Below, in pieces: positions 1,814 to 19,661 of a stretch of DNA of 64,000 nt. Made by a program: the position numbers and the translations under genes. Source of the stretch: an uncultured bacterium (GTDB taxonomy: Bacteria; Oederibacteriota; JAAXVQ01; JAUVAV01). The DNA lies in contig CAVQBK010000006.1 in assembly GCA_963710755.1 (NCBI GenBank), positions 1-64,000 on the forward strand. The letters are read 5' to 3'. Position 1 is the first letter of the stretch, and the number at the start of each line of letters is the position of its first letter. The notes beneath the pieces are model-generated. The model ran no database searches, was not told where the DNA came from, and saw only the letters and a program-made list of their open reading frames with translations.

Positions 1814-3298
1814 TTACATTTTTTTATCTTTTGTTCCCCCTTGCCCCATGGCCTTGTCCAGCAGGTGTTGGTCCTCCGGGGTATTGTTAACACCTGTTTT
1901 TTCCAGAATCGTGGGGATGATGAAAATCACCACATCATTGCGTACTCTGATTTCCTTGCGGCTGGAAAAGAAGAAGTCGATCAGCGGAATGTAGCCCAGG
2001 ACAGGCACGCGGTCCACTTGGGTTACGGTGGTTTCCTTTTTCAGCCCGCCCATGACAAAGACTTCCCCGCTTTTAATGGTGACCGTGCTGTTGGCCGATC
2101 GGCTGGAGACAATGGGACTATTGGTCGGCGACCAGCCGGTTAAATTGTTTAAATGAGCGTTCAGATCGAGGGTTACAAAATCCTGGGAGACAATGTGAGG
2201 AATGACCGATAAGGAGAAACCGGCATTGACCCAGGTGGTGGATTGCGAAGTATCCATATTTTGGGTGATACTGTCAGTACTATTGTTGTCATAAGACTTG
2301 CTGATATTGGTGCTTGGGATCTCATTCTCCATTCTTGCGCTTACCGATCCATATTCATGAGGATAATTCGAGGAATAATTGCCAGTATAATAGTGGCGAC
2401 CAAGGTTCTCATAATAAATACGATCGCCGTCGCTAATATAGGCACGCTTGTTGTTGGAGGCCACGATCCTGGGGCTGGAGAGCACCTGGCCCCGACCATT
2501 GCTGACCAACAGGCCAATTAGAGAATCCAAGCCCTGAATACTCATGCTGCCTTTATAACCATAGCCGATGTTGGTATATTGTGCTTTGCTGTCCAGGCTG
2601 TTTTTTTGAACATTGGGACTGTCCACATCGGCCGTAAAGGGCTGGCTTTGGCGGGTGCTCAGCGAGTTGATGGTGGCCTGGGCGGACTTGAGGATGGAGC
2701 GCCAATCAAAGCCCAATTTGGAATCACTACCGTTATTTAGCTCCACCACTTTCATCTCAATGCTGACTTGCTTGACCGGCACATCGAGCTTGGCGACAAA
2801 TGCTTTGGCATTGTCGATTTTGCTTTTGAGGTCGGTGATGATCAAGGCATTGAGATCGCCATCAACTCGGACAATGGCCGAAGAGGACAATTTATCGCGG
2901 ATGAGGTTGATCAGTTTATAAGCCTGGGTGTTTTTGATGGACAGGACCACTGTGTCCAGGCGGAGATAGTCTTTTAGCTTGGGGGAATCCAGTTTTTTCA
3001 CTATTTTGATGAGATCTTTGACCTTGTTGTCCATGTCGGTGATGATGAGCATGTTTAGGGCGTCATTAACTTGGACCGTGCCGTAGCGGGATAACCGAGC
3101 TTTGATGAAAGGTTCCACTTCCGAGGCTTGGATGTGCTTCAATTCTACTGTATCGGTCACGGTGTCCGTACCGGCCGGATCGGCCAATTCCAAGTTGAGC
3201 TGCATGGAGCCCTTTTGTACCGGGTCCACAGCAAAAAGTGTGGTGTTCAAAAAGGCAAATAAAATAGTTCCTAATAACATGATCTTAGTTAACTTCAT
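1814..3298 (-). CDS. Secretin (GspD/PilQ-family outer-membrane channel)
   Basis: Signal peptide (MKLTK...LFA); secretin-N repeats (LKHIQASEV...LNMLIITD, LNALIITD...LDVPVKQVSIE); C-domain motifs LSSPRI, GFSLSVIPHI, VTIKSGEVFVMGGL, VPVLGYIPLI and VIFIIPTI. Start placed at the ATG after a GGAGG RBS; the ORF track begins at 3310. Confidence 0.9.
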   Translation of the reverse strand: MKLTKIMLLGTILFAFLNTTLFAVDPVQKGSMQLNLELADPAGTDTVTDTVELKHIQASEVEPFIKARLSRYGTVQVNDALNMLIITDMDNKVKDLIKIVKKLDSPKLKDYLRLDTVVLSIKNTQAYKLINLIRDKLSSSAIVRVDGDLNALIITDLKSKIDNAKAFVAKLDVPVKQVSIEMKVVELNNGSDSKLGFDWRSILKSAQATINSLSTRQSQPFTADVDSPNVQKNSLDSKAQYTNIGYGYKGSMSIQGLDSLIGLLVSNGRGQVLSSPRIVASNNKRAYISDGDRIYYENLGRHYYTGNYSSNYPHEYGSVSARMENEIPSTNISKSYDNNSTDSITQNMDTSQSTTWVNAGFSLSVIPHIVSQDFVTLDLNAHLNNLTGWSPTNSPIVSSRSANSTVTIKSGEVFVMGGLKKETTVTQVDRVPVLGYIPLIDFFFSSRKEIRVRNDVVIFIIPTILEKTGVNNTPEDQHLLDKAMGQGGTKDKKM

Positions 3299-3384
3299 TA
3301 TTCCCTCCAAAAGCTTGGTTTTATAGATTTGACTAAAAACTCTAAAAATCCTTTCATGTTTTTTTAAATAAAATAGATTAATTC

Positions 3385-3625: not shown

Positions 3626-5221
3626 TTATATCCAAATCTTCACCCCGGCCCGGAAGAGGAGGCCTTCGTAGTTGACCTGCAGGGGCCGGTTGTCAATCAC
3701 GATCTTTTCGCCCCGGTCATAGACATCGGTCATAAAAGCCTGGCGATAGCCCATGTCGAAAGCCATGGCCACATTCTCGGACCAGAAGAAATCCAGCCCC
3801 ATGGTGGCGCGATACCCCATAGTCTCGCCAATAAAATCCATTACGCCGTAACTTCTCCGTTCATGATCGATTACTGTTTCCTGATAATAACCCCCATCAA
3901 GGCTAATATATTCCAGCCCGCCGCCAAGCGTAAACAGCAACCGCTCCCCCAGGGGAACGGCCAATTTGACATGGGCTTCATAGATTCTGGTGGGCAGATC
4001 AAGGCGGGCATTGAATTCATGGAGCACCCCAGTATCAGGATTGATCAGACTCCCTGAGCCTTCCACATGAACATACAGCTCATTGTACTCGCCACCCACG
4101 ATCAGCCAGTCGGTCAGACCATAATCAGCGCCCACGCCCCAGCTATATCCCCTTTTTACCTCAGGCATTTTGGAACTATCAGCACCATATAAATTGGCCG
4201 CAATTTCCAATTCGTCATTGACGTACTGCACATAAATGCGGTTAAAATCTGTAAAAACAAATTGATTTTCCGCGCCAGTGCCATAAATACACTTCCTGCC
4301 GGCCACGGAATTCATTTTCCGGGGTTGAAGCGGTTTTTGGTAAGTGCTTTGAAAAGCGGCTGTTTGTTTTACCGGTGCCGTGGATTGGGGAGCGGCTGCC
4401 GTCTGTGCGGGTTGGCTGACGGCGGCGGTTGCCTTAGGTGTGGCTGCGGGTGCTGCGGCAGCATAGGCCTGGTCGTACACATTGGTCTTGTTTTTAAAGT
4501 CATATTTGGCGATGTTGTCCCTGATCCAGCTATCGAACCGGATCAAGGCATCCTCAGTGGCTTCCATGCATAAGGGCTGCAATTGGCTGGCATCAAAGAC
4601 CCCGCCCAAAGAGAAGCGGAGGCTGTTTTTCGATTCCCCGAAAATAACCACGCTGGTGATGTCTTCCTGTTGGCGGTTGCGCAGGACAATGGTCAGGTAG
4701 GTGGCCATTTTGGCGGTGCCGAAACCGAGAAACTCGCCCTGTTTTTTCAATTTAAATTCCGATTGTACCACCAGGCCCGCATCCGCGCCGGGGATGTCCT
4801 GCAGTAACTTGGTCATCATGGTGGCGTCATCGTAAAAAATGGTGGTATACCGGGGTGCATCATTGTATCTGAGGAAATCGACCACCCGCGATTGCACGGT
4901 GGCTTTCAACTGCTGATAGCGGGGTGAGTTAAGAATCTGCTCCTCAGGAATAAATTTAAAAGGAAACGCCGCCTGATAGCGGCTGAAAAGGCTGTCCTTG
5001 ATTTTTGCAGCCACTGGCTTTAGATCAAACTTATCGTTTTGCACCAACTTGCTCACTACGCTGGCCAAGCCGGTGAAATCGGTCATGTCAATGGACTTGC
5101 TGGCATAAACGGACAGAATTGCCGTATTTTTAACATGAGACAATTTTTCCACATCCACCGTGGCGCATGATGACAGCATCAACATCGCCACTAACCCAAC
5201 CACTAGCCTGCTTTTGTTCAT
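3626..5221 (-). CDS. Lipoprotein with Ala/Pro/Thr-rich linker and C-terminal outer-membrane beta-barrel
   Basis: Lipobox LSS-C; linker AAAAPAATPKATAAVSQPAQTAAAPQSTAP; C-terminal amphipathic beta strands ending FRAGVKIWI. Confidence 0.65.
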   Translation of the reverse strand: MNKSRLVVGLVAMLMLSSCATVDVEKLSHVKNTAILSVYASKSIDMTDFTGLASVVSKLVQNDKFDLKPVAAKIKDSLFSRYQAAFPFKFIPEEQILNSPRYQQLKATVQSRVVDFLRYNDAPRYTTIFYDDATMMTKLLQDIPGADAGLVVQSEFKLKKQGEFLGFGTAKMATYLTIVLRNRQQEDITSVVIFGESKNSLRFSLGGVFDASQLQPLCMEATEDALIRFDSWIRDNIAKYDFKNKTNVYDQAYAAAAPAATPKATAAVSQPAQTAAAPQSTAPVKQTAAFQSTYQKPLQPRKMNSVAGRKCIYGTGAENQFVFTDFNRIYVQYVNDELEIAANLYGADSSKMPEVKRGYSWGVGADYGLTDWLIVGGEYNELYVHVEGSGSLINPDTGVLHEFNARLDLPTRIYEAHVKLAVPLGERLLFTLGGGLEYISLDGGYYQETVIDHERRSYGVMDFIGETMGYRATMGLDFFWSENVAMAFDMGYRQAFMTDVYDRGEKIVIDNRPLQVNYEGLLFRAGVKIWI

Positions 5222-5576
5222 TCCCTCAGTCCCCTTTACAGCTAATAGCCCCTTTATCTTGGGCTTGTATTAGAATTAGACCGGCAAATGTAAAAAAACT
5301 TCCCTTTTTTTTGATATTTTTACCAATGTCAATTTCGGTTAAATGCATGATTTAATTTAATCTTGATTTTAAGGACATTATTTGACATTTGATCTGGATG
5401 GCTTACTGAAGGTGAGATTGATCAATCTTTATTAAAATAGTCTGAAGATTTCAATGGGCAATATCAATGAATTTAAAAATGGAATCCCGCAATCCTTTAA
5501 ATCGTCATTTTTATTATTTATACTCGTAAGCATAATACAGAAACAGCCTTATAAACACGACTTCACCAAAGAAAAC

Positions 5577-8500
5577 CTACACCGCCCCGGCCAATCGCTG
5601 TACCCGCCATAATAAAGGCCGGGGGAGCAGCGGCGCTTCCACTTGCGGATAAAGCCGATGGAACTGGTTATAAAGCCGCTGCTCTTCAAAGAGCAGTTTT
5701 GGCAGTTTCACAGGCCGCACTTGACCGTCCATCAGCAGCGAAACCTTGGTCCCCTTAACCAACATAAGTTGATGCAGCAATGCGGACTCCAGTTTATTGT
5801 CTGCTGTCCGGCCTCGAAGCTCACTAATCTCACGCAGCAGCATGGAACCCCAATAGATGTTGATTTGCTCCGGCGATTGGGCAGCCATCAAAGTTACTAA
5901 AACCTTGTCAAGACGCTGCCAAGCTTTTTCCTGGTGATGGTAATAAGGCCGCAATACGGGATCAGCCAGCAATTGCTGCGTCAACGTTACTACCAAAGAC
6001 GGTTGCTCGAGGCCTTCCACTGCATGACTACGATCTTCCTGTTCAAAAAGCATCTCCATGGCCAAGCCGGTCAGGGGTGATGGCGACTTGCCTGCTCTTG
6101 GCATCAGCACTTGCGGCAGATAGAAGGTCACCTGATTCCCTTCCTTCCGCCAGGCCCGGCCTTGGACCCATTGCCAAAGCTGGGACCATCTGTTGCCGGG
6201 CAAATCGCCGAGGGGTTTAATGCGGGGTGTAAAGACAGCGCCCGTATCCAGGAATTGCCTGAGCCCAACTGATCCTTGCCAGCGCAATAAATCAACTTTG
6301 GAAAATGGTGACTGCTCTGGCTCAGGGTTTATTCTCATCCCCATCAGGGCGGCCCAGAGAAGAAGCCTAACCATGGTCACAGGCCTATTCAACAGACCGG
6401 GAAGCGTTTGGCCTAATTTCACGTTCTTGAATGAGGGGCCCTTAAACAGCAAGGCTTTCACCAGCGTGCGTTGCCAGTGCCTGAGAGGAGCATAACTTAG
6501 TGATTCCCCCGCGGCCAATGGCTGATCGATTTGCTGTCCTTGGCCGAGCAGATTGACCATGAAATGATTGAATGAAAAGACTGCTATATAAACCCACCAA
6601 GGACTGAGGGGGTAAAAGATGCTGATAAGCACCATGGCGCCGGCAGTCAGGGCTGATAGGATAAGCAGGTGGCGCCGGGTGGTCTCGCGCCAGGCTTGTT
6701 TCAGCCCGCGCCAATGCCGCCAGTCGATATGCAGCACTTGCCATATCAGTTGCAGCCCCCACCACGGCAGCCCGGTGCCCCAGGCTAAAAACAGCAGCAC
6801 CGCGCCTTCGGTGATCACCGGCGCCGCTACCCGGCTCATAAGGCTGCCATAAACCGTCCTCATTGGGGCAGGCAACAGCTGCTCCCAAGAGGCATAAAAA
6901 GCGTTGAGCCAGGGCCATTGGCCACCATTTTCCGTTTTTTTGAAACCTCTTTTAATCAACACCCGGGCATTAAATTCAGGATCATTGGGAATATTCAGCT
7001 TTTCCGATTGTTTGGCCAGTATGTGCATGCCATCGTCCCAGGATTGCTCTCGGGAATTGAGAAAAGGATTTTCTTGTAAAAATCTCCTTTTGTCTTGCCC
7101 AGAAAATGATGGCTTCTTTTCCTTAACCGTGGCCGGCCTTCCTGTTTTCAGTATTTTCTGAACCTCACTAGGATCATTAACATTTCCGAATTTTTCTAAA
7201 AGTTCTTCACGACTAGGTATTTCAAGTGGTAATTTAATAAATAACTCCAGGAGGACTTGCTGATTTTCCAGATGAGGAGCAAGGTTTAAAAGCGTTGTCA
7301 TCGATTGCTGATCACGGGAAGTAAAGACGCACCTGACAATGACATCAGGTAAAAATGTAATGCTGGAGGTCGAGGTCCATTCCAGCTTGCGCACTTCTTC
7401 GAGAAAGGCCAGGTTTTTCAAATATGAATCTCGAATGTAGTACTCTCTCTCATCCAAAAGACGTTGACCAGGTTGGCTCTGAAGATGATTTAAAATGATA
7501 TTGAACGCCTTTTTTTTAGCTCTACTGCTACTCTGCTTAAAATCATCCCGCAGCTTCCGACTATCATCTATCCAGCCATAGGTCTCCAATTGTCCGACCA
7601 TGGTTTGATACGCTGCTGGAACATCGTCATAATCCGAGTTCAGATATGCCGAAACCATGAGATACCGTATTTGCCCAGGCAGTTCCCTGAGGTGGGCCAA
7701 TTCCGGATCATCCTTGCCTGCCCCTTGGCTCCAGAGTTTGTCCATGACAGGGCTTAATGCCTCACGGTTAAGGTTAGGAGCTGTCTGCTTAACGGCCTGC
7801 TTTTGTTCTTCTATCCCACCTGTGACTGCAGCCACCTGTTGACACCATTGCCCAAAGGAAGTGATGGGTTGAGCCGGCGTTCCGGCTTCAGGCTGTTGCT
7901 GTTCTGGTTCAACAATAGTTCCTTCCACTTCTTCTTGACTCAATATTTCCCTGACCTCATCCGGTTCTGTAGCCGATTTGAGTTGGTCCCAATATTTTTT
8001 AATTTTGGTCATACCATAGGGTAGCTGAATTAATTTCTCGAGAACTTTTTGGTTTTTCAACTCTGGCGAAAGATTTAAAAGTTCTTTCAAAAATGTCTCG
8101 TCATGAGTCGTAAACAGCATTTGGCCAACAACAGCTGCTGAGAATGAAATATCTAAGGTCCATTCCAGCTTACGCACCTCTTCGAGAAAAGCGAGGTTTT
8201 CTTTAAATCGCCCACCAATTTTATACGCTATCTTGCGAGGCAGATGTTTCTTGGATCGGCTCTGGATGTGTCTTAATATGATCTCCCAGCCCTGATCCGA
8301 AGAAGTCTCCGGGTTAAAATCATCGCGCAGCTTCCGGCTGTCATCTATCCAGCCGTAGCTCTCCAATTGTCCGACAAGGGATTGATACGCTTCGGGGATA
8401 GCCTCCTGATACTTTTCAGGGGCAACATTTGGCCCCAGCAAGTACACTGATATCATCAGGCACCGTATTTCCCCGGGCAGTCTCCGTAATTGATCCAATT

Positions 8501-9401
8501 CCGGATCACGCTCGCCTGCCCCTTGGCTCCAGAGTTTATCCATGACAGGACGTAATGCCTTACGGTTAAGTTTATTGGCGGTCTGCAAAAGAACCTGCTT
8601 TTGCCCTTCTATCCCATCTTTAGCTTCAGCAACTTGTTGGTGCCATTGACGCAAGGAAGTGATAGACTCGGCCGGCGTTTCCGCTTCAACGCCCTTTCCC
8701 GATTCGATCGGGCCTTCCTCAGCAGGGGCTTTTTCCTTCACCGGCTGTGTTTCAGCCGCTGGTGCTTCTGGCTTTTCAGCGGCAGCAAAAGCAGGCGGTG
8801 ACACTAGTGGCTGGATAATGCCTTCCATCCCAGCGTCTTTTAAAATTGTTTGCATAGTCTCAGGATCCCAGTTCCACTCAAACCGGAACCTGCTCCGATT
8901 CTTATCAACCCAAATTACTTTTAAATTATTTCGGGCATGTAATTTTGCAATAAAAGCAGGATCAACCAAGACCCGGGCCTCTTTCCTATCCATGACAACC
9001 GTCTTGTGCTGCTTTTCCATCACGATTTGGAGGACAGCAAGAAATAATTGTGGTTTAACCGCTGCATCTTTATATTCAGGCATGATGTAGGCAAAGGTAA
9101 TCATGCCGGCTTTATCAACAGCCACTGTGCCCACCAAATTTTGCTGACCATCATAAGCCATTATTTTGTAGGCATCGGTCCAAAATCCCGCCATTCCCGG
9201 CGTCCATTCTTTTTTTCGTTTATTAAACAAGTTGGTTTTCTTTAATTGCCGTATTCCTGGATCGTCATCTGCGATTTCATGTTCATAGATTTTAATTTCC
9301 TTGATAGGCGTTTTCGCCATGTCCGAAGGAACCGGTTCAGCCCCGGGTTTTTCCTCGGGCTTTTCTTGCGCTTGACGTTGAGCGCCTACCCGAGCCATCA
9401 A
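5577..9401 (-). CDS. C-terminal part of the giant protein (GNAT-like domain, ~266-aa repeat pair, TM bundle); probably continuous with 9455..16342 across a frameshift
   Basis: The frame is open upstream of the annotated TTG and encodes LELAKDNPPVEESLEELRALMAR, which completes a repeat begun in the upstream ORF. Confidence 0.75.
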   Translation of the reverse strand: MMARVGAQRQAQEKPEEKPGAEPVPSDMAKTPIKEIKIYEHEIADDDPGIRQLKKTNLFNKRKKEWTPGMAGFWTDAYKIMAYDGQQNLVGTVAVDKAGMITFAYIMPEYKDAAVKPQLFLAVLQIVMEKQHKTVVMDRKEARVLVDPAFIAKLHARNNLKVIWVDKNRSRFRFEWNWDPETMQTILKDAGMEGIIQPLVSPPAFAAAEKPEAPAAETQPVKEKAPAEEGPIESGKGVEAETPAESITSLRQWHQQVAEAKDGIEGQKQVLLQTANKLNRKALRPVMDKLWSQGAGERDPELDQLRRLPGEIRCLMISVYLLGPNVAPEKYQEAIPEAYQSLVGQLESYGWIDDSRKLRDDFNPETSSDQGWEIILRHIQSRSKKHLPRKIAYKIGGRFKENLAFLEEVRKLEWTLDISFSAAVVGQMLFTTHDETFLKELLNLSPELKNQKVLEKLIQLPYGMTKIKKYWDQLKSATEPDEVREILSQEEVEGTIVEPEQQQPEAGTPAQPITSFGQWCQQVAAVTGGIEEQKQAVKQTAPNLNREALSPVMDKLWSQGAGKDDPELAHLRELPGQIRYLMVSAYLNSDYDDVPAAYQTMVGQLETYGWIDDSRKLRDDFKQSSSRAKKKAFNIILNHLQSQPGQRLLDEREYYIRDSYLKNLAFLEEVRKLEWTSTSSITFLPDVIVRCVFTSRDQQSMTTLLNLAPHLENQQVLLELFIKLPLEIPSREELLEKFGNVNDPSEVQKILKTGRPATVKEKKPSFSGQDKRRFLQENPFLNSREQSWDDGMHILAKQSEKLNIPNDPEFNARVLIKRGFKKTENGGQWPWLNAFYASWEQLLPAPMRTVYGSLMSRVAAPVITEGAVLLFLAWGTGLPWWGLQLIWQVLHIDWRHWRGLKQAWRETTRRHLLILSALTAGAMVLISIFYPLSPWWVYIAVFSFNHFMVNLLGQGQQIDQPLAAGESLSYAPLRHWQRTLVKALLFKGPSFKNVKLGQTLPGLLNRPVTMVRLLLWAALMGMRINPEPEQSPFSKVDLLRWQGSVGLRQFLDTGAVFTPRIKPLGDLPGNRWSQLWQWVQGRAWRKEGNQVTFYLPQVLMPRAGKSPSPLTGLAMEMLFEQEDRSHAVEGLEQPSLVVTLTQQLLADPVLRPYYHHQEKAWQRLDKVLVTLMAAQSPEQINIYWGSMLLREISELRGRTADNKLESALLHQLMLVKGTKVSLLMDGQVRPVKLPKLLFEEQRLYNQFHRLYPQVEAPLLPRPLLWRVQRLAGAV
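7150..8690 (-). repeat. Internal domain duplication B in the giant protein (period ~798 nt)
   Basis: PVMDKLWSQGAG, YGWIDDSRKLRDDF and NLAFLEEVRKLEWT each occur twice, with DNA-level similarity. Confidence 0.9.
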
Positions 9402-11030
9402 GGCACGTAGTTCCTCAAGGCTTTCCTCGACCGGCGGGTTATCTTTTGCAAGCTCTAAGCTTCCATAAGATTTTCAGCGTCCATTCTTGAATTAGCCCAT
9501 TGTGAAAGCAAAACTCTCTGCCAGTCTCTTGGAAGAGCTGTCAGTCCCCGGCTTACTTCCGGGGAGAGAGGGTTAAGGTTCTGCAATTGGGCTATCGTTA
9601 TTTTTTTATTGGCGACCATCGAGGCAAGGCTCTGCTGCTGAAAGGAAGTCAAATTTTCAGATAGCCGATGTAGTTTCTGCAACTCCTGCAATCCAATGGT
9701 TTTCGCAATGCGCGCCATCAACAGGGGTTCCTGGCATGGTTCAGGCAGGCCGTCAATGATTTTAATGTCCGCTTTGTCCATAGTGGTTTTTTCATATTGA
9801 TCACTTTCAAGGCGCCCTGCAAGCAGGGCGTTGAGCACAATCCATGCCATGGACGGGGGTAATTGATCCAATTTTTCATAGACTTGGGCATTTAGCCCAG
9901 CCGCTGTTTTCAAGTCGTCTTTTTTCAACTCTTTTTTATAAACAGCAGAGAGCAGCGGCCAGCGGTATGGTGCGGGCAACTGGAGCAAGGCCTCACTATT
10001 CTTTTGGGCGAGGTCAATGAGGCCGCGCAGATCATTCCTGGTATAACCGGCATCCTCCCAATGAGGAATAATGATACCCGCCAAGGCAGGATTTAGGCCG
10101 GACCAAAATCCAGCCATTGCGAGAATCCTTTTTCCCCAAAAGTGTATGAAGGGATACAGGACAGCCATTAATTGGTTTTCATCAGGCCTTTCATGGCCAT
10201 CATAGACTACCATAGCCTTGGCGGACGTTTTCACAGTGTCTGAAGGGACTGTTTTGGTCATGAGTTCTGCCGCGGCAGACTCTTCCGCAGTGCGCAAAGC
10301 GTGAGCCTGGGCCATCAAGGCACGCAGGCTGGTAATGCTTTCATCAGATGGCGGGTTGTCCCGAACAAGTTCGGCTGCATTCTTTAGGTCTTTAAGATCC
10401 AGTCTTTTATTGGCCCAATCTAAAAGCAAAGCTTCCTGCCAAGCCATGGGAAAAGCAGCCAGCTCCAGGCTTGCTGCTAACGCGAGGGGGGAAAGCTTGT
10501 CTAATTGGCTAACGTTTATTTTCACCTGGGCGACCATCAAGGCAAGGCTCTGTTGCTGATAAGAGGTCAAGTTCTTAAATAATTGGCTTTGATTCCTATA
10601 CGCATGTTGTAATTGTTGCAAGCCAAGCAATCTGACAGTTTCGGCAATGCGCGCCACCAGCAGGGATTCATGCCATGACTCAGGCAGGCCGGCAATGATA
10701 TCGATATCCGCTTTCGTCATGGTGGTTTGCCGATACTGGAGGCGCTTAAGGCTCTTAGTAAGCAGGGCGTTGAGCACGATCCAACGCATGGCCGGAGGCA
10801 ATTCACCCAATTTGGTATAGACGTCTTCTTTAAACCCGGCTGCTGTCGACAGGCTGTCCGCGGGCAACGCATTTTTGTAAACAGCAGAGAGCAGAGGCCA
10901 ACGGTATGGTTGGGGCAATTTGAGCAAGGCCACACTGTTGTCTTTGGCAATATTAATTAAAAAAGGCAGGTCCTCCTTGGTATAACCGCCATCTTTCCAA
11001 TGCGAAATGATGTCATCAGCCAGGGCTGGT
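9393..11030 (-). repeat. Internal domain duplication A in the giant protein (second copy spans the frameshift)
   Basis: PALADDIISHWKDGGY...LPQPYRWPLLSAVYK...DNPP...LRALMA versus PALAGIIIPHWEDAGY...LPAPYRWPLLSAVYK...DNPP...LRALMA. Confidence 0.85.
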
Positions 11031-14000
11031 TTCAATTGCTCCCCAATATAATCAGTGTATTGCGGCCTTTGACTTAAAATGGTCTGGATTTTCTCCAGTT
11101 GGTCCTTGGTTTGAACCGGAATTGGTGTTGCTAAATAATTTTCTATTTCGTCCGGTAGCAGGGCACTGGTAATAAGGCGGGATTGAATGGTGGGCGAAAG
11201 ACCTTTTTCTCTAAATCGTTTTAAAAGCACAACCAATTCCCGAGGAGGCCGGGAAGTTCTGAGCATGGCTAAGGCCAGCACTTCAGGTGCACCATATTGT
11301 TGCATCAGATCCAGCAGCTTCCATAGGTTGGAGACATCGTCATCAGTTGTTAAGATCGTGGCAATGACTTCAGGTGTGCACAGATAATCTTTGTGTCCGG
11401 ATAATTTCATCCGTAAATAGCCGTGGTTCCACAAGGACAAGTGCCCCGTAAATTGCACCCATCCGTCTTTGACAATAGCCGTAACCTGAGCATTCCTCGT
11501 AAATAAAGGGTGCCCCCCGCGCTCCATACTTTCCACCAAACAATAAAAGGTAAACTCATTCCACTGATCGTCGGCAATTTGTTTAAACGTCGCGGCTGTT
11601 ATTGGGGACAACCATTGGCGTTTCTCCATGGTGTCCACCACTTCTCGAAAAGACCGTAAGGGCTGGATCGCCATGTCTTTTTTGGAAGCCTTACGGCGGG
11701 GGCTTGTGGAGAAGGGGTGGGCCGGCCGGGCCTTAGCCAAGGCTGCGCGAAAAGTTCTTAAATCCAAGTTCCGGCTGACAATTTCTTCCAGGGTTTTCCC
11801 GGGCAACGGAGAAGCCAGCAATCTGGGGATCATGGCTTGTTGGGCTCCAAGTTTTATAAACTTGGGAATAATTTCATTTAATTCTTCGGTGGTTTTTTTG
11901 GACGTGATCACGGCAGCTGCAGCCGATGCCGTTAAACCATGATTTCTGATTAATTCAATCCTTGCCAAAAGATCTTCTTGAGACAACGGGCTAAGCAACA
12001 TGTCCTTCAGCACGGCGGAGGTGCAACTGTATTGGTTAGTAGCTTCAAGTTTTTCCCTCAAGTAAGGGTGATCCCACAAGAAAGCTTTGCTTTCAAATTG
12101 ATCCCAGCCCGCTTTTACCAAAGCCGTCATTTGATCGCGTGCCAGCCATTGAGATCGCTCGCGGCGAATATTAGTCAACAACTGTTCAAGTACCTGATCT
12201 TTGGTACGGGCACTGATCACCATCTGAGACAGGCTATTCTCCAAAGACGCCAATGTGTTCGGTGCCAGCCATTGTTGACGCTCCATTTTGGAGATCACCT
12301 GCTTACATTCAGGCGGCAGGACAACAGCCTCCTCGGGCGACACGATGGCGGCTTTGATCCGGCCCAGCTCTTCAACACTCAAACGATGGCCTAAAAACAG
12401 ATTAATAACCATTAATTGATAACGATAGCTGGGTTTGCCCAACAAGCAAACTCGCCCTTGATCAAGTTGGCGCAGGGTTTGTTTGATGGTTTCACTGTCC
12501 CAGTCTTGCCCAGGTTCTTTTCTAAAAAGACTTAGTAGTTGGTTTTGAATGTCCATTCTGATGTTCTGAGACATGCTCTGTGCCATCCAGGCACCCCATT
12601 GACTTTCCTGCCATAAGGCCTCAGCAGATTGATGTTGGAGAATCAAAACCCAATCATCCAGTGTGGCCTGACGGCGGCATAGCCTAATTAATACGGGCCC
12701 TCTGGGTCTGGTCTCCATGCCGGCAAGTAAATCCAAATAGTCCTGCAACAAGTCCACGCCGACACCGCTAAAAAGAACCTCCTCCTGGGCACGGGCGCTG
12801 ATCTCAGCCTTTGCCATCATTCCCAAGAGCCTATTGAGTTCTTCCCAGGGCCAGGCACATTCAATGGCCCTCCGTAAAATATTAGCTTCACTGCTGTTCC
12901 AGGTTTCCAAAATGGCTAAAATTTCATCGTCATTTCTGGTGGAATGCATGGCCGATTCCAAAACGACCTCCGGCAGATCCATATGGGTTTTCTTTTCCCA
13001 CTGAAGTATTTTCTTGAGGCGCTCCGGTTTTTGATAAAACAATTCAATAGGAATCTTATGTAGCGGGCTGGTTCCGGATTTCAACCGGGGGGCCCGATCC
13101 AACATATGCGAAAAAAAGACTTTAGCTTGGTCTGCCGTATCCAGTGGCTCTCTTTTTAAAAGCTCATCCACCACCGCCCCCTCTATCAGGCCTGATTCAG
13201 CCCATTGCCGTGCCACTGATCGAACCTGTTCTGTCAGGCTGGGCGGTGCGTCGAGTTTTTTGAAAAAGGGCTTCATGGTTGGCCATGATTTATTTTGAGG
13301 CAGGTGGGAAAGCGCCTTTTCAATTTGTCCGGCATTTAAGCTGGTATTTAATATATTAAACATCACATACGGTCTCAGATCCAACTTCTGCATGCGGTCG
13401 ATCAAGGTCTTCAGCTCCTCAGGCGCACGCCGTTTGTAGATCATATCGCGGGCATAGCTAAGGGAAAAGCCGTTCTCTCTAAGCACATTAAAATAATCCC
13501 TAAAATAAGCCGCATCCTTATCATCTACGGAAATCAAGCGGTATATGCATGTATGGGTCATGGTGGCATCTTTAGGACTCATATACTGGTCATGATAGGC
13601 TTTTTCCACTTCCACTATCAAAGGCCAGATGTCTTTCCTGGCCAGCAAGACCTTGAGGCCGCGGTTCTTCAGATTACTCATCTGTTGCTGGTCAAAAATG
13701 GGACTGTTTTTTTCCGCCAGCACCACCGGCCACTCATACTGCGGATGGCGAATGCGGCTCAGGATAATATCGAGGATTTTATCTTCATCAAGATCGATAA
13801 TAGGTATCGCTTCCAGCGCTGATGATGTTTCTGCTTTATTGATCCAATGAACTTGATCCAATTGATCCACCAACTGCAGGGCTTCGTTATACAACTGTGA
13901 GGACGGCTGTTGCTGATAAGCCGTCTTCTTCAAATCAACGATGGCCTGCTCAATATCACGGGCCGCATAATTATCCAGTAAAAATGTATAAATATCAGTT

Positions 14001-16342
14001 TCGTCAGCTTCAAGAATGGTCTCACCACGTTGATTAAGCCAGCGTTGCAGGGCTTGGCGGGCAGAAGGTCCTGGTTGGCCACCATTGCCGCCCGACCCAT
14101 TATTAGGTGATTCATGCCTTTCAAGCCACTGGAAAGGCTGGTCTCCCAACACAGGTACTGCCAAGCCCTGGCCCCATGGTTTGGTAAAAGTCAGGCCGGC
14201 CAACACCAAGGCTGTGGTCATTAACGCGAGTATGCTTGGTGCGGGATACTGCCCCAACAGCATAAGCAGTTCACGATGACTGTCTATTCCTGTCAGGCGA
14301 TAAAGACCAAGTAGGCTATTGACTATGGGTGACACCATGGTCTGAATCAAGGTATTCATGGTTTCCGGACGCAGCATGAGCCCTGCAGCCCAAAGGCCTG
14401 TTCCAACGACAGGCACCACCGCATGGGCACGTCCGGTCTGTTGCAGGGCAAGTGCCCAAACCTGGCCGGCGTCCGCCCGTACGGCCTGGAGGCCGCGCCT
14501 TATCAATGTGTAAGCCTGGCCGGGCAACCGCTTTACCACACCCCAGGAGGTCCATGATCGCCACGGGTTCCGCGCCACGCTGCCCGGTTGCATGGCCTCG
14601 GCCCTGGTGGGCAGATTATCGGCCACTTGATTTTCCCGGCAGGTGACCAGCTCCCACTGGCCGGGCAAAGGCATGATGCCCAGGTTTGGCGTTTTCCTCC
14701 GAAGGCTGCGCCTGAGGATGGCCTTTAAATCCAAAAGACGGCCGTCCTGGAGAACCGGGATGATTATGGCGCTGCTTTCAGGCGCACGCCGGGCTTGGGC
14801 AAAATCCAATTGCACCCCCCCATCTTCAGCATACCGAGCTTGCAGAGCCTGATAGGTATTGCTTAAACTCACCAAACTATGTCCGGTTTCAAGCTGATCA
14901 AAAGCCCAAACACTTTTCAGCAACAGTTCCAGCGAGCGCATCACGCCCCGTATTGGCATGGCCAGGTTGGCTAATGTTTTTGAAGCACCGTGGTCCATCA
15001 GCGGAAAATTGGTAGGCAAAGCGAAATGGATTTGATTTTGGCCCAACAATTGTTCCAAGGGGGTCATTTTCCTGGTAAGCAATTGAAAATAAGGATTAAC
15101 CATGTCCATCTTGGTCATTTGAGGCTGCAGCGCAATATAATTCATGCCGGCTGTTTTCATATCCTGCAGAATATCGTTGGTATGAAAGCCGCCGGTAATC
15201 AGGACCGCCAGAGGCACTGATTTTTGCTTGATGACCGCAATGGCTTTAGCCGCCAGAACATGGCTGCGCTGGTCAGCCTGCTTGTAAAAAATTCTGGCCT
15301 GGTCAATATAATCCCACAGCTTGGCCCAGCTCAACGGCTCCATCATGTCCTGTCCTTGCTGGCCGCGCAGAAACGCTTTGAAAGATTGGGCTGTATAATG
15401 TTCGGGATAGAGACGTAAAGCCTGCCACTCCTGCGGGTTCAAGGAAATGTTAAGCAGCCGCTCCAGGAGGCGGGCCCTCCCAATGAATTGGTCCAATCGA
15501 GTGGCATTTTCATTACGATACAGCCGCCGGCGCAGGGCTTGATCAAGGTGATCCATAGCAGCCAGAAGCGCATCCGGATCCTGACCCTGCAAAGAGGCAT
15601 CGCTGCTTTTGAGATAGGTCAGGATCTGCGGAAAGGCCTGCAAGGTCATCCCCTGCCGGCGTGCCGCCTGAGCCAAAAAGTAGGCATATTGCCTGAGACT
15701 GGTTTGGCCTTTTTGGTAATTTTCCCGACCTTGATCAAAGGCCGCAAGTTCAGGAGAGTAAAGGGCGGGTTTGAGCTGTTCCAAACGGTCGAGCAAGTCT
15801 TTAACCAAACCTTGGGCCTCATAATTAAAAAAGCCTTCCAAGGCCGCCTGGCTTTGATCATAGAGTGCCTGGTCTTCAACCCCTTCCAGCACCAGGGGCG
15901 AGGAACTCATGGCAGCGCTGTATTCGGCACCCGTAATTTTGCCTTGGCGCATCAAGTAGCGGCCGACCAATCTCTTGGCTTGCCGGTCTGGAAAACTGCC
16001 CAATTTCCCCACGTCAATCGCTTGGGAGGCCCCTTCCACCATCACCAGCGACAGATGATGGTTGGCCTTCAGATAGTCCAACAATTGACTGATATGCTGT
16101 TGAACTTCATACTGGCAATGCACATCGGCAATGTGAATAATGGTGGTCGGTCCTTGACCTTGGTGCACCGCGGTAATGCGGGCCATGGAGGCTGGAATCT
16201 TAAGAGGGGACCCTTGTATAACCGACGCTTGGAAGCCCGCCGATGGCATGGTGGTCAAAGACCAGGAAAAGTGAGGCATCAGCAACATTAGGGTATTGAA
16301 CAACACCAGGACGTTGGCCATGCGCCGCGTTAATCGTTTCAT
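9455..16342 (-). CDS. N-terminal part of a giant exported/membrane protein
   Basis: 2295-aa ORF with a signal-like N-terminus, motifs HIADVH, VEGA, ITGAEY, GVED and ITGGFH, hydrophobic segments near aa 640-720, and internal duplicated domains. Confidence 0.8.
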   Translation of the reverse strand: MKRLTRRMANVLVLFNTLMLLMPHFSWSLTTMPSAGFQASVIQGSPLKIPASMARITAVHQGQGPTTIIHIADVHCQYEVQQHISQLLDYLKANHHLSLVMVEGASQAIDVGKLGSFPDRQAKRLVGRYLMRQGKITGAEYSAAMSSSPLVLEGVEDQALYDQSQAALEGFFNYEAQGLVKDLLDRLEQLKPALYSPELAAFDQGRENYQKGQTSLRQYAYFLAQAARRQGMTLQAFPQILTYLKSSDASLQGQDPDALLAAMDHLDQALRRRLYRNENATRLDQFIGRARLLERLLNISLNPQEWQALRLYPEHYTAQSFKAFLRGQQGQDMMEPLSWAKLWDYIDQARIFYKQADQRSHVLAAKAIAVIKQKSVPLAVLITGGFHTNDILQDMKTAGMNYIALQPQMTKMDMVNPYFQLLTRKMTPLEQLLGQNQIHFALPTNFPLMDHGASKTLANLAMPIRGVMRSLELLLKSVWAFDQLETGHSLVSLSNTYQALQARYAEDGGVQLDFAQARRAPESSAIIIPVLQDGRLLDLKAILRRSLRRKTPNLGIMPLPGQWELVTCRENQVADNLPTRAEAMQPGSVARNPWRSWTSWGVVKRLPGQAYTLIRRGLQAVRADAGQVWALALQQTGRAHAVVPVVGTGLWAAGLMLRPETMNTLIQTMVSPIVNSLLGLYRLTGIDSHRELLMLLGQYPAPSILALMTTALVLAGLTFTKPWGQGLAVPVLGDQPFQWLERHESPNNGSGGNGGQPGPSARQALQRWLNQRGETILEADETDIYTFLLDNYAARDIEQAIVDLKKTAYQQQPSSQLYNEALQLVDQLDQVHWINKAETSSALEAIPIIDLDEDKILDIILSRIRHPQYEWPVVLAEKNSPIFDQQQMSNLKNRGLKVLLARKDIWPLIVEVEKAYHDQYMSPKDATMTHTCIYRLISVDDKDAAYFRDYFNVLRENGFSLSYARDMIYKRRAPEELKTLIDRMQKLDLRPYVMFNILNTSLNAGQIEKALSHLPQNKSWPTMKPFFKKLDAPPSLTEQVRSVARQWAESGLIEGAVVDELLKREPLDTADQAKVFFSHMLDRAPRLKSGTSPLHKIPIELFYQKPERLKKILQWEKKTHMDLPEVVLESAMHSTRNDDEILAILETWNSSEANILRRAIECAWPWEELNRLLGMMAKAEISARAQEEVLFSGVGVDLLQDYLDLLAGMETRPRGPVLIRLCRRQATLDDWVLILQHQSAEALWQESQWGAWMAQSMSQNIRMDIQNQLLSLFRKEPGQDWDSETIKQTLRQLDQGRVCLLGKPSYRYQLMVINLFLGHRLSVEELGRIKAAIVSPEEAVVLPPECKQVISKMERQQWLAPNTLASLENSLSQMVISARTKDQVLEQLLTNIRRERSQWLARDQMTALVKAGWDQFESKAFLWDHPYLREKLEATNQYSCTSAVLKDMLLSPLSQEDLLARIELIRNHGLTASAAAAVITSKKTTEELNEIIPKFIKLGAQQAMIPRLLASPLPGKTLEEIVSRNLDLRTFRAALAKARPAHPFSTSPRRKASKKDMAIQPLRSFREVVDTMEKRQWLSPITAATFKQIADDQWNEFTFYCLVESMERGGHPLFTRNAQVTAIVKDGWVQFTGHLSLWNHGYLRMKLSGHKDYLCTPEVIATILTTDDDVSNLWKLLDLMQQYGAPEVLALAMLRTSRPPRELVVLLKRFREKGLSPTIQSRLITSALLPDEIENYLATPIPVQTKDQLEKIQTILSQRPQYTDYIGEQLKPALADDIISHWKDGGYTKEDLPFLINIAKDNSVALLKLPQPYRWPLLSAVYKNALPADSLSTAAGFKEDVYTKLGELPPAMRWIVLNALLTKSLKRLQYRQTTMTKADIDIIAGLPESWHESLLVARIAETVRLLGLQQLQHAYRNQSQLFKNLTSYQQQSLALMVAQVKINVSQLDKLSPLALAASLELAAFPMAWQEALLLDWANKRLDLKDLKNAAELVRDNPPSDESITSLRALMAQAHALRTAEESAAAELMTKTVPSDTVKTSAKAMVVYDGHERPDENQLMAVLYPFIHFWGKRILAMAGFWSGLNPALAGIIIPHWEDAGYTRNDLRGLIDLAQKNSEALLQLPAPYRWPLLSAVYKKELKKDDLKTAAGLNAQVYEKLDQLPPSMAWIVLNALLAGRLESDQYEKTTMDKADIKIIDGLPEPCQEPLLMARIAKTIGLQELQKLHRLSENLTSFQQQSLASMVANKKITIAQLQNLNPLSPEVSRGLTALPRDWQRVLLSQWANSRMDAENLMEA
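11130..12300 (-). repeat. Internal domain duplication C in the giant protein
   Basis: MERQQWLAP...QMTALVKAGWDQF...LWDHPYLREKL versus MEKRQWLSP...QVTAIVKDGWVQF...LWNHGYLRMKL. Boundaries are approximate. Confidence 0.75.
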
Positions 16343-16457
16343 TTTTCCCTGCCTTTTTGATTTTTTCGAAGCGATGGCGCAATGGGTTTGGGATGGAAAA
16401 ACGGCTAAAATTGTAAAAAACCTGATGTTTTTGAATGGTTATGGGAAGCGATACGTT

Positions 16458-17165
16458 TTATTGTTTGACAACTTTCAGATCACTCAATACCACGGCACTG
16501 CTGATGGTCCCGCCGGGGGTAATAATGCGCGCAAAGATTTTTTTAGGCACTGCCACTTGATTAATGGTTTCATAGCCCAATTTCAATTCCATGGCCGGCA
16601 TGGATTCAACGGCCACAAAATTAATTTTGGTTACCAGTTTCTGATCAGGATCATAAAGAAATTCCACGGCCAAAGGGTTGCGCGCTGTGGATGAATCCGC
16701 TTTTTGGCCTTCTTTGTTCTTGTAATAGCCTTTGACTTTGATCAGGTTCCCTGCTTGCTTTTCCGAATGGTCTCTCTCCAGCCAAAATTGATTAAGAAAA
16801 TGGTAATAAAAAAGGTCGCTGTTCATACCAGCCGAAGCTTCCCGGAGGGGGACGGTTTGAAAAGGCCCGCCATTGAGGCTGACCTTTACGTCATTGCCAT
16901 TAATCCTGACTTCTTGGGGAGCCGGATCAGTGAGGCTCATGGTCACCTGATCAGGCGCGCTGTAATGATAGGACCCTGACTGGGTAATGGTCTGGCCGCC
17001 CACACCAAAGATGGACATTTGTAAATTGGCCTCAATGGAGCTCACCTGATCCTGATGAGCTTTTAAAGCGTTTAAAAGGGATTGCGGAGTTGTATCCACC
17101 GCCACGACCAGAGGGACCAGGCTAAAATTTAAAAATATAAGGAATATCCATTTCAGTGTTTTCAT
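16458..17165 (-). CDS. Exported LolA-fold (lipoprotein carrier/sorting-like) protein
   Basis: Signal peptide, then the LolA-like pattern SIEANLQM...SGSYHYSAPDQVTMSLTDPAPQEVRINGNDV and a C-terminal LGYETINQVAVPKKI...LSDLKV. Confidence 0.6.
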   Translation of the reverse strand: MKTLKWIFLIFLNFSLVPLVVAVDTTPQSLLNALKAHQDQVSSIEANLQMSIFGVGGQTITQSGSYHYSAPDQVTMSLTDPAPQEVRINGNDVKVSLNGGPFQTVPLREASAGMNSDLFYYHFLNQFWLERDHSEKQAGNLIKVKGYYKNKEGQKADSSTARNPLAVEFLYDPDQKLVTKINFVAVESMPAMELKLGYETINQVAVPKKIFARIITPGGTISSAVVLSDLKVVKQ

Positions 17166-17504: not shown

Positions 17505-18068
17505 TTAAAAAACTAAAGTGAATTTTGAATCTGCGGCCAGCCCGACATACGTGCCGACGCCGGCAAAATTAATATTAGGGTAGTCAATAAATTCCTCTTC
17601 CTTAAAGCCCATCAAATCCATGCTCATGGTGCAAATATGGAGTCTCACGCCCAATTCCCCGGCGGTTTGGATCAGCTTTTCCAAGGACATGACGTTTTTC
17701 TGTTTCATCAGTCCCCGGATCATTTTGGAGCCCATACCCGCCATCTCCATTTGGGACAGTTTTAATTTTTTGGAACCCGTAGGCAGCATCCAGCCGAACA
17801 TGGTGCTGATCAGGTTTTTACTGACATGTTTCTTGGGATCGCGGAATACGGAAATACCCCAGAACGTGACGAAGATGTCCACTTCCATGTCCGAGGCTGC
17901 GGCGCCATTGGCAATGATAAATGTGGCAATGGCCTTGTCCAGATCACCGCTAAAAAGCAATAAGGTCAGCCGGTCGGTTACCCCTTCCCCGGTTTTGTTG
18001 TTGGTTGCGGCTTTAATTTCAGCGAGCTGTTTTTCCAGATCGTCAATCTTTTTTTCCAGATCGGGCAT
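17505..18068 (-). CDS. DsrE2-type (DsrE/DsrF/DrsH-like) sulfur-carrier protein
   Basis: LLFSGDLDKAIATFIIANGAAA...FVTFWG, LSQMEMAGMG, conserved ICTMSMDLMG and AGVGTY. Start placed at MPDLEKK after an AGGAG RBS; the ORF track extends it to 18296. Confidence 0.9.
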   Translation of the reverse strand: MPDLEKKIDDLEKQLAEIKAATNNKTGEGVTDRLTLLLFSGDLDKAIATFIIANGAAASDMEVDIFVTFWGISVFRDPKKHVSKNLISTMFGWMLPTGSKKLKLSQMEMAGMGSKMIRGLMKQKNVMSLEKLIQTAGELGVRLHICTMSMDLMGFKEEEFIDYPNINFAGVGTYVGLAADSKFTLVF

Positions 18069-18088
18069 AGTGGGTTCTCCTTCTTGTC

Positions 18089-19228
18089 TCAGAGGCTGTT
18101 TTTCAAAGCATGTACGGCCAGGGCTACCGGCCGGTAAACCGCATGGGCAAATTTTGTAAATGGCAGCAAAACAAGGAGGTCCAGGGCCAGCACGACATGG
18201 GTCAAAAACGCGGCATAAGCCCAGGGCCCTACCAAGGGCAAATAGTCTGCAACCTCCAAAGTAAAACCGGTAAAGACCGTGAAGAAAAAGATCCATAAAA
18301 ACATCCAGTCCGAAAAACGGCCTGAACTGTAAACTGTCTCCAATTTGAGCAAACGACGCAGAATGGTCATACCGGAACCATAAATCGCTGCCAGGCCGCC
18401 CAGGGTACCCAGTAAGCGGGCCGGATAGAGCAAGCTTACGGCACTGCCCGGGGTTTTAAAAAGAAAATCCCAGGTGGTGGCCAGGCCCATCACGATAAAG
18501 CCCCACATCATGGCCATATGCAGCACCCGCCTGGAAACAAACCAGGTCACCGGTTTTTTATCCTCGTCGCATTCGGCAAACCGTCTTTGCACGCCGATTT
18601 CCCGGGCCACGGCAATCATTTCAGGCACCAGGGTTTTAAGGGAGAATTTAAACTTAGGCACACTAGGCTGACCCGGTAATTGCACCTGCCAATTCTGGAA
18701 TACGGTGCGCAAGGCATTAATAACCAATACCAGTCCCAGAAAACCAATCGCCGCCACACCCATATTATGGATTAATTCAAAAGGAATGAATTTAAATAAT
18801 TGTAATGGACCTTGCGGCATAGGCCCGCGATGGGCCATGAGGAAGATTGCAAAAAAGGCCGAGATAGCCAGGTAAAATACCATGGCCCCCAGTCCGCCAC
18901 GGTGCAGCAATCCGGCGATGCCCGTAAAATCGACTTTACTGATGGCAAAACTGCGGGCTGCTGCCATAAAGGTACCGGGTTTGGCATCACGCGGACAGGT
19001 ATCGGAACAGGCGCCGCAATAATAACAGAGCCAGACTTCAGGCGCTGCAGCTACTTTCTTGTCCAGGCCAAGCTGGGCCAACCGGATCAGACGCCTGGGA
19101 AAAGTATTATATTCTTTGGACAAAGGGCATACAGCGGAACAGTTGCCGCAATGATAGCAGGCACTAATGTCCTTAGCCCCGAATTTTTTCAGCTTGTTGA
19201 TAAGCTTGGGTTCAGTGGATATTAGCAT
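18089..19228 (-). CDS. QmoC-like membrane subunit (HdrC-type 2x[4Fe-4S] domain plus NarI-like cytochrome b region)
   Basis: CYHCGNCSAVCP and WLCYYCGACSDTCP, followed by several TM helices carrying His residues (LIHN, VLHM, LTHV, KFAHAVYRP). Confidence 0.85.
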   Translation of the reverse strand: MLISTEPKLINKLKKFGAKDISACYHCGNCSAVCPLSKEYNTFPRRLIRLAQLGLDKKVAAAPEVWLCYYCGACSDTCPRDAKPGTFMAAARSFAISKVDFTGIAGLLHRGGLGAMVFYLAISAFFAIFLMAHRGPMPQGPLQLFKFIPFELIHNMGVAAIGFLGLVLVINALRTVFQNWQVQLPGQPSVPKFKFSLKTLVPEMIAVAREIGVQRRFAECDEDKKPVTWFVSRRVLHMAMMWGFIVMGLATTWDFLFKTPGSAVSLLYPARLLGTLGGLAAIYGSGMTILRRLLKLETVYSSGRFSDWMFLWIFFFTVFTGFTLEVADYLPLVGPWAYAAFLTHVVLALDLLVLLPFTKFAHAVYRPVALAVHALKNSL

Positions 19229-19515
19229 GCATTCTTATCCTCACAAAAAGAGTAGGTAAAATAATCCCCCTCCTGCGCACTCTCCTTGATTTGACCATAT
19301 TTGCGCATGGAGGCCAGGTGCCATAAGACCTCAGCCGTGGGCAGTTGGCAATGATCAGCCAACGCCGGCACAGTGGACGGGCCCGAAGCTTTGAGTTGGT
19401 TCACGATTTTTTGACGCGTCTGTCTGGTTTGTTTCATATAAGCCTGGGCCTGACTGACCGAGGCCTGTTTTTCCTGGCGCAGGGTTTTTAAGTCGTTAAC
19501 CTTGTTGTCTTCCAT
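19222..19515 (-). CDS. Small winged-helix DNA-binding protein
   Basis: GPSTVPALADHCQLPTAEVLWHLASMRKYGQI followed by a beta wing; overlaps the next gene. Confidence 0.7.
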   Translation of the reverse strand: MEDNKVNDLKTLRQEKQASVSQAQAYMKQTRQTRQKIVNQLKASGPSTVPALADHCQLPTAEVLWHLASMRKYGQIKESAQEGDYFTYSFCEDKNAC

Positions 19516-19554
19516 AAATAACTCCTTCGGCTTCTGGTTGCCTCGCGAACCCTT

Positions 19555-19641
19555 GCAGGGAAGGGTCGCGACCCTTCCCTAAAATATTAAATCCCCATGG
19601 TCTGATGATTATCGTAAGGACGACATATTTATCGCCCCTGC
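19555..19641. repeat. REP-like palindromes inside the cluster
   Basis: Perfect 24-bp palindrome AGGGAAGGGTCGCGACCCTTCCCT (19557-19580) and a degenerate GTAAGGACGA...TCGCCCCTGC (19614-19641). Confidence 0.55.
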
Positions 19642-19661
19642 CCGCCAATTCCTGGTGCTCC

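Follow-up and report, generated by a model that had tools for sequence, protein, structure and literature searches.

Sequence evidence for one ancestral gene across a frame change in a paralogue with a predicted TIKI/Ere-like head domain

Described systems and the layout of the locus

In genes with programmed frameshifts, such as dnaX (-1) and prfB (+1), a frame change beside a stop codon joins two frames of one protein. In the frameshift-interrupted genes of bacteria and metagenome-assembled genomes, which include young pseudogenes and indel artefacts, two open reading frames (ORFs) on the same strand and in different frames jointly match one uninterrupted homologue. Here we analyse two long minus-strand ORFs that meet near position 9456 of a 64,000-nt window, the whole stretch of DNA under study (positions 1 to 64,000 of the forward strand of contig CAVQBK010000006.1, assembly GCA_963710755.1). 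Like genes of the dnaX/prfB type, this locus has a frame change beside a stop codon joining two frames; it differs from them in lacking a slippery sequence, a stimulatory structure and conservation of the site. With frameshift-interrupted genes it shares the pair of same-strand ORFs that jointly match one uninterrupted homologue, a downstream frame that is still fully open and the absence of a recoding signal. As such, a gene of this kind in a metagenome-derived genome is nothing unusual. What differs here is that the proof comes largely from the gene's own tandem repeat, with a single distant full-length homologue in the searched libraries.

Very long membrane proteins of Candidatus Omnitrophota have already been described in two preprints (bioRxiv 10.1101/2023.11.21.568195; 10.64898/2026.06.07.730766). 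According to the sections of these preprints available to us, giants are defined by a threshold of at least 10,000 aa (10.64898/2026.06.07.730766) or of more than 30,000 aa (10.1101/2023.11.21.568195), and secretion or pilus genes flank 13 of 14 giants (10.64898/2026.06.07.730766). The present gene resembles the giants portrayed in those sections in its phylum, as judged by ESM Atlas labels, in an N-terminal hydrophobic anchor followed by later transmembrane segments (here from hydropathy only), in having almost no Pfam domains and in its internal tandem duplications, while an adjacent secretin gene echoes the reported secretion and pilus neighbours. It differs in its size of ~3,590 aa, which is far under the 10,000-30,000 aa thresholds; paralogues with the present head domain reach 9474 codons in this genome and 13,678 in a relative. 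It also differs in its domains, since the same sections name C39 and S8 peptidase or SecA-like domains (10.1101/2023.11.21.568195; 10.64898/2026.06.07.730766) as opposed to the TIKI/Ere-like head predicted here. The word "frameshift" occurs in neither Omnitrophota preprint (10.1101/2023.11.21.568195; 10.64898/2026.06.07.730766). The TIKI superfamily, in the part of its description available to us, groups PMT, HopBA1, Bcr135, ChaN and RRSP and is characterized by a catalytic set of two His and two Glu residues (PMC6254334).

The upstream ORF (P0001; minus strand, 9455..16342) begins with ATG and encodes 2295 aa. Its start at 16342 agrees with that of a same-genus orthologue with 75-76% identity to residues 1-724. 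The P0001 frame terminates ...NSRMDAENLMEA*, with the TAG stop at 9457-9455. The downstream ORF (minus strand, 5577..9401) has 1274 aa when counted from a TTG start. The frame in which it lies, shifted by -1 relative to P0001, is open from 9473 to 5580 for 1298 codons (P0002; 5577..9473 on the minus strand with its stop) and reads KSYGSLELAKDNPPVEESLEELRALMAR.... At the junction the minus strand has the sequence ...CTT ATG GAA GCT TAG AGC TTG CAA AAG AT.... The open frames of P0001 and P0002 share just 16 nt (9458-9473), and the third reading frame contains stops there. The break itself is confined to 9455..9460 on the minus strand, with TAG right after GCT, and corresponds to a net loss of one base (or a gain of two). 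When P0001 and P0002 were joined with an X at the break, the read-through product was 3588 aa long, of which P0001 represents the N-terminal 64% and P0002 the C-terminal 36% of the ancestral gene. An earlier note, made from the sequence alone, had described two ORFs with a frameshift at about 9456 and a read-through of ~3588 aa; the ORF list and the junction read placed every element where the note had it, and the X-joined product has that length. In a public protein collection, the locus is entered as two proteins of 2295 aa and 1273 aa, the latter (P0003) starting from ATG 9398.

One ancestral gene across the break

The break falls within a tandem repeat of P0001 with a unit of ~312 aa. Copy 1 (minus strand, 10100..11035; P0001 residues 1770-2081) is intact and served as a template for the broken unit. 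Copy 2 (minus strand, 9177..10096) is distributed over two frames: the upstream frame encodes its part at 10096-9458, and the -1 frame its part at 9455-9177. We used copy 1 (P0001 residues 1761-2090) as the tblastn query against the DNA of copy 2. In the upstream frame, residues 1770-1989 matched 10096-9458 at 57% identity (E 4e-74); in the -1 frame, residues 1991-2081 matched 9455-9177 at 39% identity (E 1e-14). Since the two abutting matches are separated by only one query residue and 2 nt, one base is missing. Consistent with this, a three-piece protein alignment of the repeat copies tiles without overlap and with one column missing. The repeat peptides quoted in the earlier note are both present, and the gap-free alignment it claimed for them holds except for that column. 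In the DNA alignment of the two copies, the single gap falls in the GCN codon preceding TTA GAG. The gene's own tandem repeat therefore places the break to within a codon, and this use of a repeat appears new as an approach.

The X-joined read-through and the codon usage of the region were examined as well. One BLASTP match of the read-through to itself (1951-2081 versus 2257-2389, E 1e-22) crosses the break, and further tandem duplications were detected by BLASTP at 1347-1530/1566-1745 and 2553-2801/2819-3065. A codon-usage score trained on the long ORFs of this genome favors the upstream frame up to ~9451 and the downstream frame from there on, and it is positive in the downstream frame ahead of any start codon. 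The structural model of repeat copy 1 is poor, with a predicted local distance difference test (pLDDT) of 55 from 3 sequences, and was read for secondary structure only. In this low-confidence model the break falls in a stretch of the repeat unit that is predicted as a helix.

The first 1200 residues of P0002 were searched against 1.84 billion representative proteins. There were three matches: P0003, which is the locus's own 1273-aa entry, a 274-aa fragment, and P0004. P0004 is a protein of 3923 aa encoded by a single open frame on a 70-kb contig. Its N-terminus corresponds to the head domain of P0001 (30% identity over 545 columns, E 3e-69). Two regions of P0002 are related to its C-terminal part. 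The shorter is a conserved block of ~85 aa (window 8916..9167, minus strand), in which P0002 103-186 matches P0004 3317-3400 (E 4e-7). This block gives the impression of an acetyltransferase-type fold, which we do not put forward as an assignment. The longer is a conserved C-terminal module (5649..6923, minus strand; E 2e-32 in the protein search), in which P0002 851-1275 matches P0004 3448-3900 (E 4e-35). Comparison of P0004 with the X-joined read-through gave six collinear blocks, at least three on each side of the break. Because P0004 carries the head domain and the C-terminal module collinearly, the ancestral architecture is one polypeptide from the head to the membrane module. P0004 is the only full-length homologue found, and it has one open frame without a shift at the break. 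Taken together, the repeat that tiles across the frame change and the collinearity of P0004 with both halves bear out the proposal that both ORFs derive from one gene of 10.77 kb. P0001 and P0002 are thus the two parts of one ancestral gene of ~3,590 codons.

Hydropathy analysis identified several hydrophobic segments at P0002 878-966 (window 6576-6842) and one at P0001 701-719. The former lie within the block that is conserved with the C-terminus of P0004, in agreement with the C-terminal membrane module that the earlier note had suggested. No second copy of the C-terminal module was found in this genome. The remainder of the protein is predicted to be helical by a low-confidence model. In P0004 the C-terminal module follows almost directly after the 85-aa block; here ~660 residues lie between the two, including the tandem pair 2553-2801/2819-3065. 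These intervening residues with their tandem pair indicate that the gene grew by internal duplication.

Searches directed at the junction returned few relatives. P0001 residues 1750-2295, compared with proteins of 1262-4017 aa, returned the query itself alone, and residues 1990-2295 had no match among shorter proteins. No relative came up when metagenome contigs were scanned with the 300 aa that follow the break and with the 306 aa that precede it. A scan of genome contigs gave a same-genus N-terminal fragment as the sole match. The same-genus genome G001 has both ends of the orthologue without the junction region; its fragment is 60% identical over P0002 residues 1086-1298. When the downstream part was compared with 40 relatives and 14 other genomes of the order, matches were found in G001 only, apart from a weak one in the related genome G007 (E 8e-4). 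On the 3' side of the orthologue's C-terminus, G001 contains a second match of 33 residues (64% identity) to the tail of P0002 in a 76-codon frame (L003; G001:C471:537-635), which may be a remnant duplicate of the tail of the gene.

Origin of the break

We considered the possibility that the frame change is a form of recoding, namely a programmed -1 ribosomal frameshift, transcriptional slippage or phase variation that would supply full-length or truncated protein on demand. The two frames overlap, with the shift just ahead of a stop codon, and the gene would be one of many paralogues for envelope proteins, a setting where switching would be biologically plausible; in addition, two other candidate frame switches in the genome sit on homopolymers. 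The site itself argues against recoding. No X XXY YYZ heptamer was found in CTT ATG GAA GCT TAG, and a GCU-decoding tRNA would be unable to re-pair on AGC in the -1 frame. The longest homopolymer within ~25 nt of the break is AAAA (9471-9474 and 9443-9446), and the break itself has TT only. The earlier note had likewise seen no canonical slippery heptamer and no long homopolymer at the site. Nor is there a repeat tract or an A/T run long enough for slippage, as no run of 5 or more occurs in the overlap. The predicted RNA fold of 9360-9480 is ordinary, with a z of -1.22 and 26 of 200 shuffles as stable. Moreover, the repeat alignment keeps the upstream frame as the ancestral reading up to the GCN codon, and P0004 has no shift. 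Because there is no slippery heptamer, homopolymer or significant RNA structure at the site, recoding is unlikely, and the recoding or phase switch that the earlier note had allowed for is disfavored; we consider it very improbable.

A second possibility is that the locus represents two long-standing genes in a stable split, with the 1273-aa downstream protein translated independently. The only candidate restart codons are TTG 9401 and ATG 9398 (9396..9403, minus strand), which are preceded by GAGGA at 10 nt and 13 nt, respectively. The presence of this motif and the separate entries of 2295 aa and 1273 aa in the protein collection are what such a split would predict. The spacer of 10-13 nt, however, lies outside the peak of 4-9 nt for Shine-Dalgarno spacers in this genome. 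The GAG GAA codons and the Leu-Met pair are inherited from the repeat unit, which has RALMA in both copies, and are not newly evolved. The 54 nt from stop to start have kept a coding score and their alignment to repeat copy 1. In addition, the repeat unit is interrupted by the break within what a low-confidence model predicts to be a helix, and P0004 is one polypeptide. A scan of 9200-9800 for promoters and terminators found no promoter-like site, and nothing on the minus strand at the junction. We therefore give next to no credence to two stable genes.

Whether it arose as a mutation or as an indel in the assembly, the event behind the break is recent: the downstream frame is intact over 1298 codons, and its codon-usage score is positive right from the break. 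A related contig was compared at window positions 7020-7048, where six of the seven differences shown affect the third position of a P0002 codon, and each of the two indel pairs shown in that region restores the frame within 3-5 nt; both observations come from a small sample.

We infer that a real mutation changed the frame of the gene very recently, with one base lost at 9455-9460, and that it is either fixed or a variant in the sampled population; we put the chances of this at about even. Errors of consensus sequences that take the form of indels concentrate in homopolymer runs, and the break site, with TT only, is not such a run. The family to which the gene belongs is redundant, with 31 ORFs in this genome, and apparently decayed copies occur in relatives. 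Matches to the head domain contain in-frame stops in two related genomes, with one TGA and one TAG at G001:C83:700-1914 and one TAG at G008:C37:485-1834, indicating that members of the family decay, or that those assemblies have errors.

The competing explanation is an indel of the assembly or consensus, in which case the gene of the organism would be intact (~3,589 codons) and the missing base would stem from assembly or polishing. We regard this as quite possible, at somewhat less than even. Two points speak against it. This genome has 73 uninterrupted open frames of at least 1200 codons, which total 515 kb, include frames of 28, 24 and 20 kb and extend up to 9474 codons. With 515 kb in unbroken frames, the rate of indel errors in the assembly cannot be high; counting each of the 5 candidate breaks as an error would still put it at no more than ~1 per 100 kb. 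The site, furthermore, is neither a homopolymer nor a simple repeat.

Several points weigh against a real mutation and on the side of an assembly indel. The genome is a 13-contig metagenome-type assembly, and 13 contigs with one of 1.47 Mb would suggest long reads. Over its 1298 codons the downstream frame has no interruption and looks like coding sequence, and such a fully intact frame is explained just as well by an error. Other candidate switches lie on T5 (C13 ~372819) and G7 (C4 ~230963), as residual long-read errors look. Three DNA sequencing runs, and no RNA run, contained the sampled words, in shares of 0.17, 0.12 and 0.06, and low-depth contigs of these runs were compared over 5000-17000. 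Among the contig pieces listed (22 of 29), none bridges 9455-9460. One contig of 251 nt ends at 9460 with a depth of 2.3 and is uninformative on the break.

Four more pairs of large same-strand open frames in this genome, which differ in reading frame, overlap by 76-247 nt: C13:366379-383045 (-), C4:228840-241777 (+), C3:409593-423663 (+) and C1:314880-321624 (-), where C numbers denote its contigs. In all four pairs a simple codon-score model, applied without homologue support, sets a frame switch inside the overlap, on T5 in C13, beside G7 in C4, and at ~412771 and ~318335 in C3 and C1, respectively. Each of these pairs may reflect another large gene with a frameshift or an indel of the assembly.

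If the frame change is a genuine mutation, translation would stop at TAG 9457-9455 and yield a protein of 2295 aa with the anchor, the head domain and most of the helical repeats. We infer that this truncated product would be without the last 1,290 residues and, with them, the C-terminal membrane module, the ~85-aa conserved block and one pair of tandem repeats. Any synthesis of the 1273-aa remainder would depend on inefficient re-initiation at TTG 9401 or ATG 9398 and would be low.

The head-domain family and its meaning

P0001 begins with a hydrophobic helix (residues ~2-29) followed by a domain of ~420 aa, together at 14993..16342 on the minus strand, as delineated by an alignment of 33 sequences and an AlphaFold2 model. 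Profile searches were uninformative about its nature. Pfam gave no family at E<=0.1 for either half of the gene, NCBIfam gave nothing relevant or above noise for either half, and a profile of the head domain had no match at E<=10 among PDB sequences. The assignment of its fold rests on the predicted model, whose mean pLDDT is 85.5. VIA-align gave five matches in all at Z>=8 among 48,161 chains: EreC (9.7), HopBA1 (9.4), 2qgm (9.2), ChaN (8.8) and BcR135 (8.6). PMT (Z 7.5) and RRSP (Z 6.0) scored lower. The top three Foldseek matches were EreC twice and 3b55, all weak (E 2.7e-3 to 3.6e-2, TM 0.21-0.25). The modeled head domain shares with members of the TIKI/Ere/ChaN superfamily (EreC 6xcq, BcR135 2rad/3b55, ChaN 2g5g, HopBA1 5t09, RRSP 5w6l, PMT 2ebf) an alpha/beta fold with a parallel beta-sheet core. 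It differs from them in having no sequence-profile match, in a helical insertion of ~200 residues that separates the two halves of the core in the model, and in its fusion to a membrane anchor and thousands of helical-repeat residues.

In the 33-sequence alignment the invariant residues of the head domain include H75, E103, R359, G384, G385 and H387, and D73 is nearly invariant, resulting in the pattern (D73)-x-H75 ... E103 ... H387. The catalytic residues named in the available part of the TIKI description are H85/E113 in Bcr135 and H3902/E3930 in RRSP (PMC6254334). The spacing of 28 between H75 and E103 is, along the sequence, the same as in those two pairs. In our reading, the head is a putative hydrolase of TIKI/Ere-like type that follows an N-terminal hydrophobic helix.

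The head domain is present in many copies in this genome (G000). BLASTP with the first ~450 residues matched 30 other ORFs, and a profile built from 33 sequences matched 31 of the 3506 open frames of at least 150 aa, the present gene included. In all 31 frames, which extend up to 9474 codons, the head domain is N-terminal, and unrelated bodies follow it. Examples are C3:1247244-1275665, C1:145408-157785 and C2:20340-32552. At E<=1e-10, the domain was detected in 15 of 99 genomes of the phylum. The carriers are this genome, all 10 others of its family and all 4 of the sister family, or 14 of 14 other genomes of the order, as against none of the 84 genomes of other families in the phylum. In a relative it heads an open frame of 13,678 codons. 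The phylum label used here rests on ESM Atlas clusters, the nearest of which are labelled Candidatus Omnitrophota and are without Pfam families. The best explanation of these observations is that the family is order-specific and highly expanded, and consists of large to giant envelope proteins with a membrane-anchored, TIKI/Ere-like head.

Two small contigs of this genome also carry head-domain DNA. The sequence at C11:5922-7277, on a contig of 8.8 kb, is 99.7% identical to C4:146672-148027 (L026 and L027), and a copy on the 9.3-kb contig C12 is 79% identical. Contigs C11 and C12 may derive from strain variation or from recent duplication of the C4 gene.

The neighbors of the interrupted gene were also examined. 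Downstream, on the same strand, are a gene with weak similarity to the outer-membrane beta-barrel family OMP_b-brl (3626..5221; PF13505, E 2.9e-5, 24.8 bits versus a gathering cut-off of 28.7) and a gene for a secretin of the type II/III secretion or pilus family (1814..3310; PF00263, E 1.6e-35; PF03958, E 2.4e-17). Upstream, an ORF of 235 aa (16458-17165) has no Pfam match. Further upstream, 17505-22764 on the minus strand encodes a DsrE-like protein, an Fe-S and membrane protein and two HdrA-like flavoprotein/ferredoxin ORFs, whose open frames overlap (19662-21596 and 21442-22764).

A bolder proposal connects the break with the family. The giants with this head domain could form a repertoire whose members alternate between complete and truncated forms through frame changes, in some cases at homopolymer tracts; the present break would then be a real population-level variant, and the head a hydrolase that processes or releases the giant protein. 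We hold this to be unlikely. A full-text literature search for Omnitrophota together with erythromycin esterase returned no papers. Both the head domain with its TIKI/Ere-like fold and the restriction of this domain to one order appear new.

For annotation, two unrelated-looking hypothetical proteins of 2295 and 1273 aa stand for one gene of ~3,590 codons. Any survey of long Omnitrophota proteins that relies on called ORFs will overlook split genes of this kind. The break itself is probably of little biological consequence. The gene it interrupts is one of 31 paralogues with a previously unannotated, TIKI/Ere-like head that is restricted to a single order of the phylum and stands at the start of open frames as long as ~13,700 codons. 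Proteins with almost no recognizable domains so far thereby gain a testable handle, a conserved domain that is a putative hydrolase and in which two His and one Glu are invariant.

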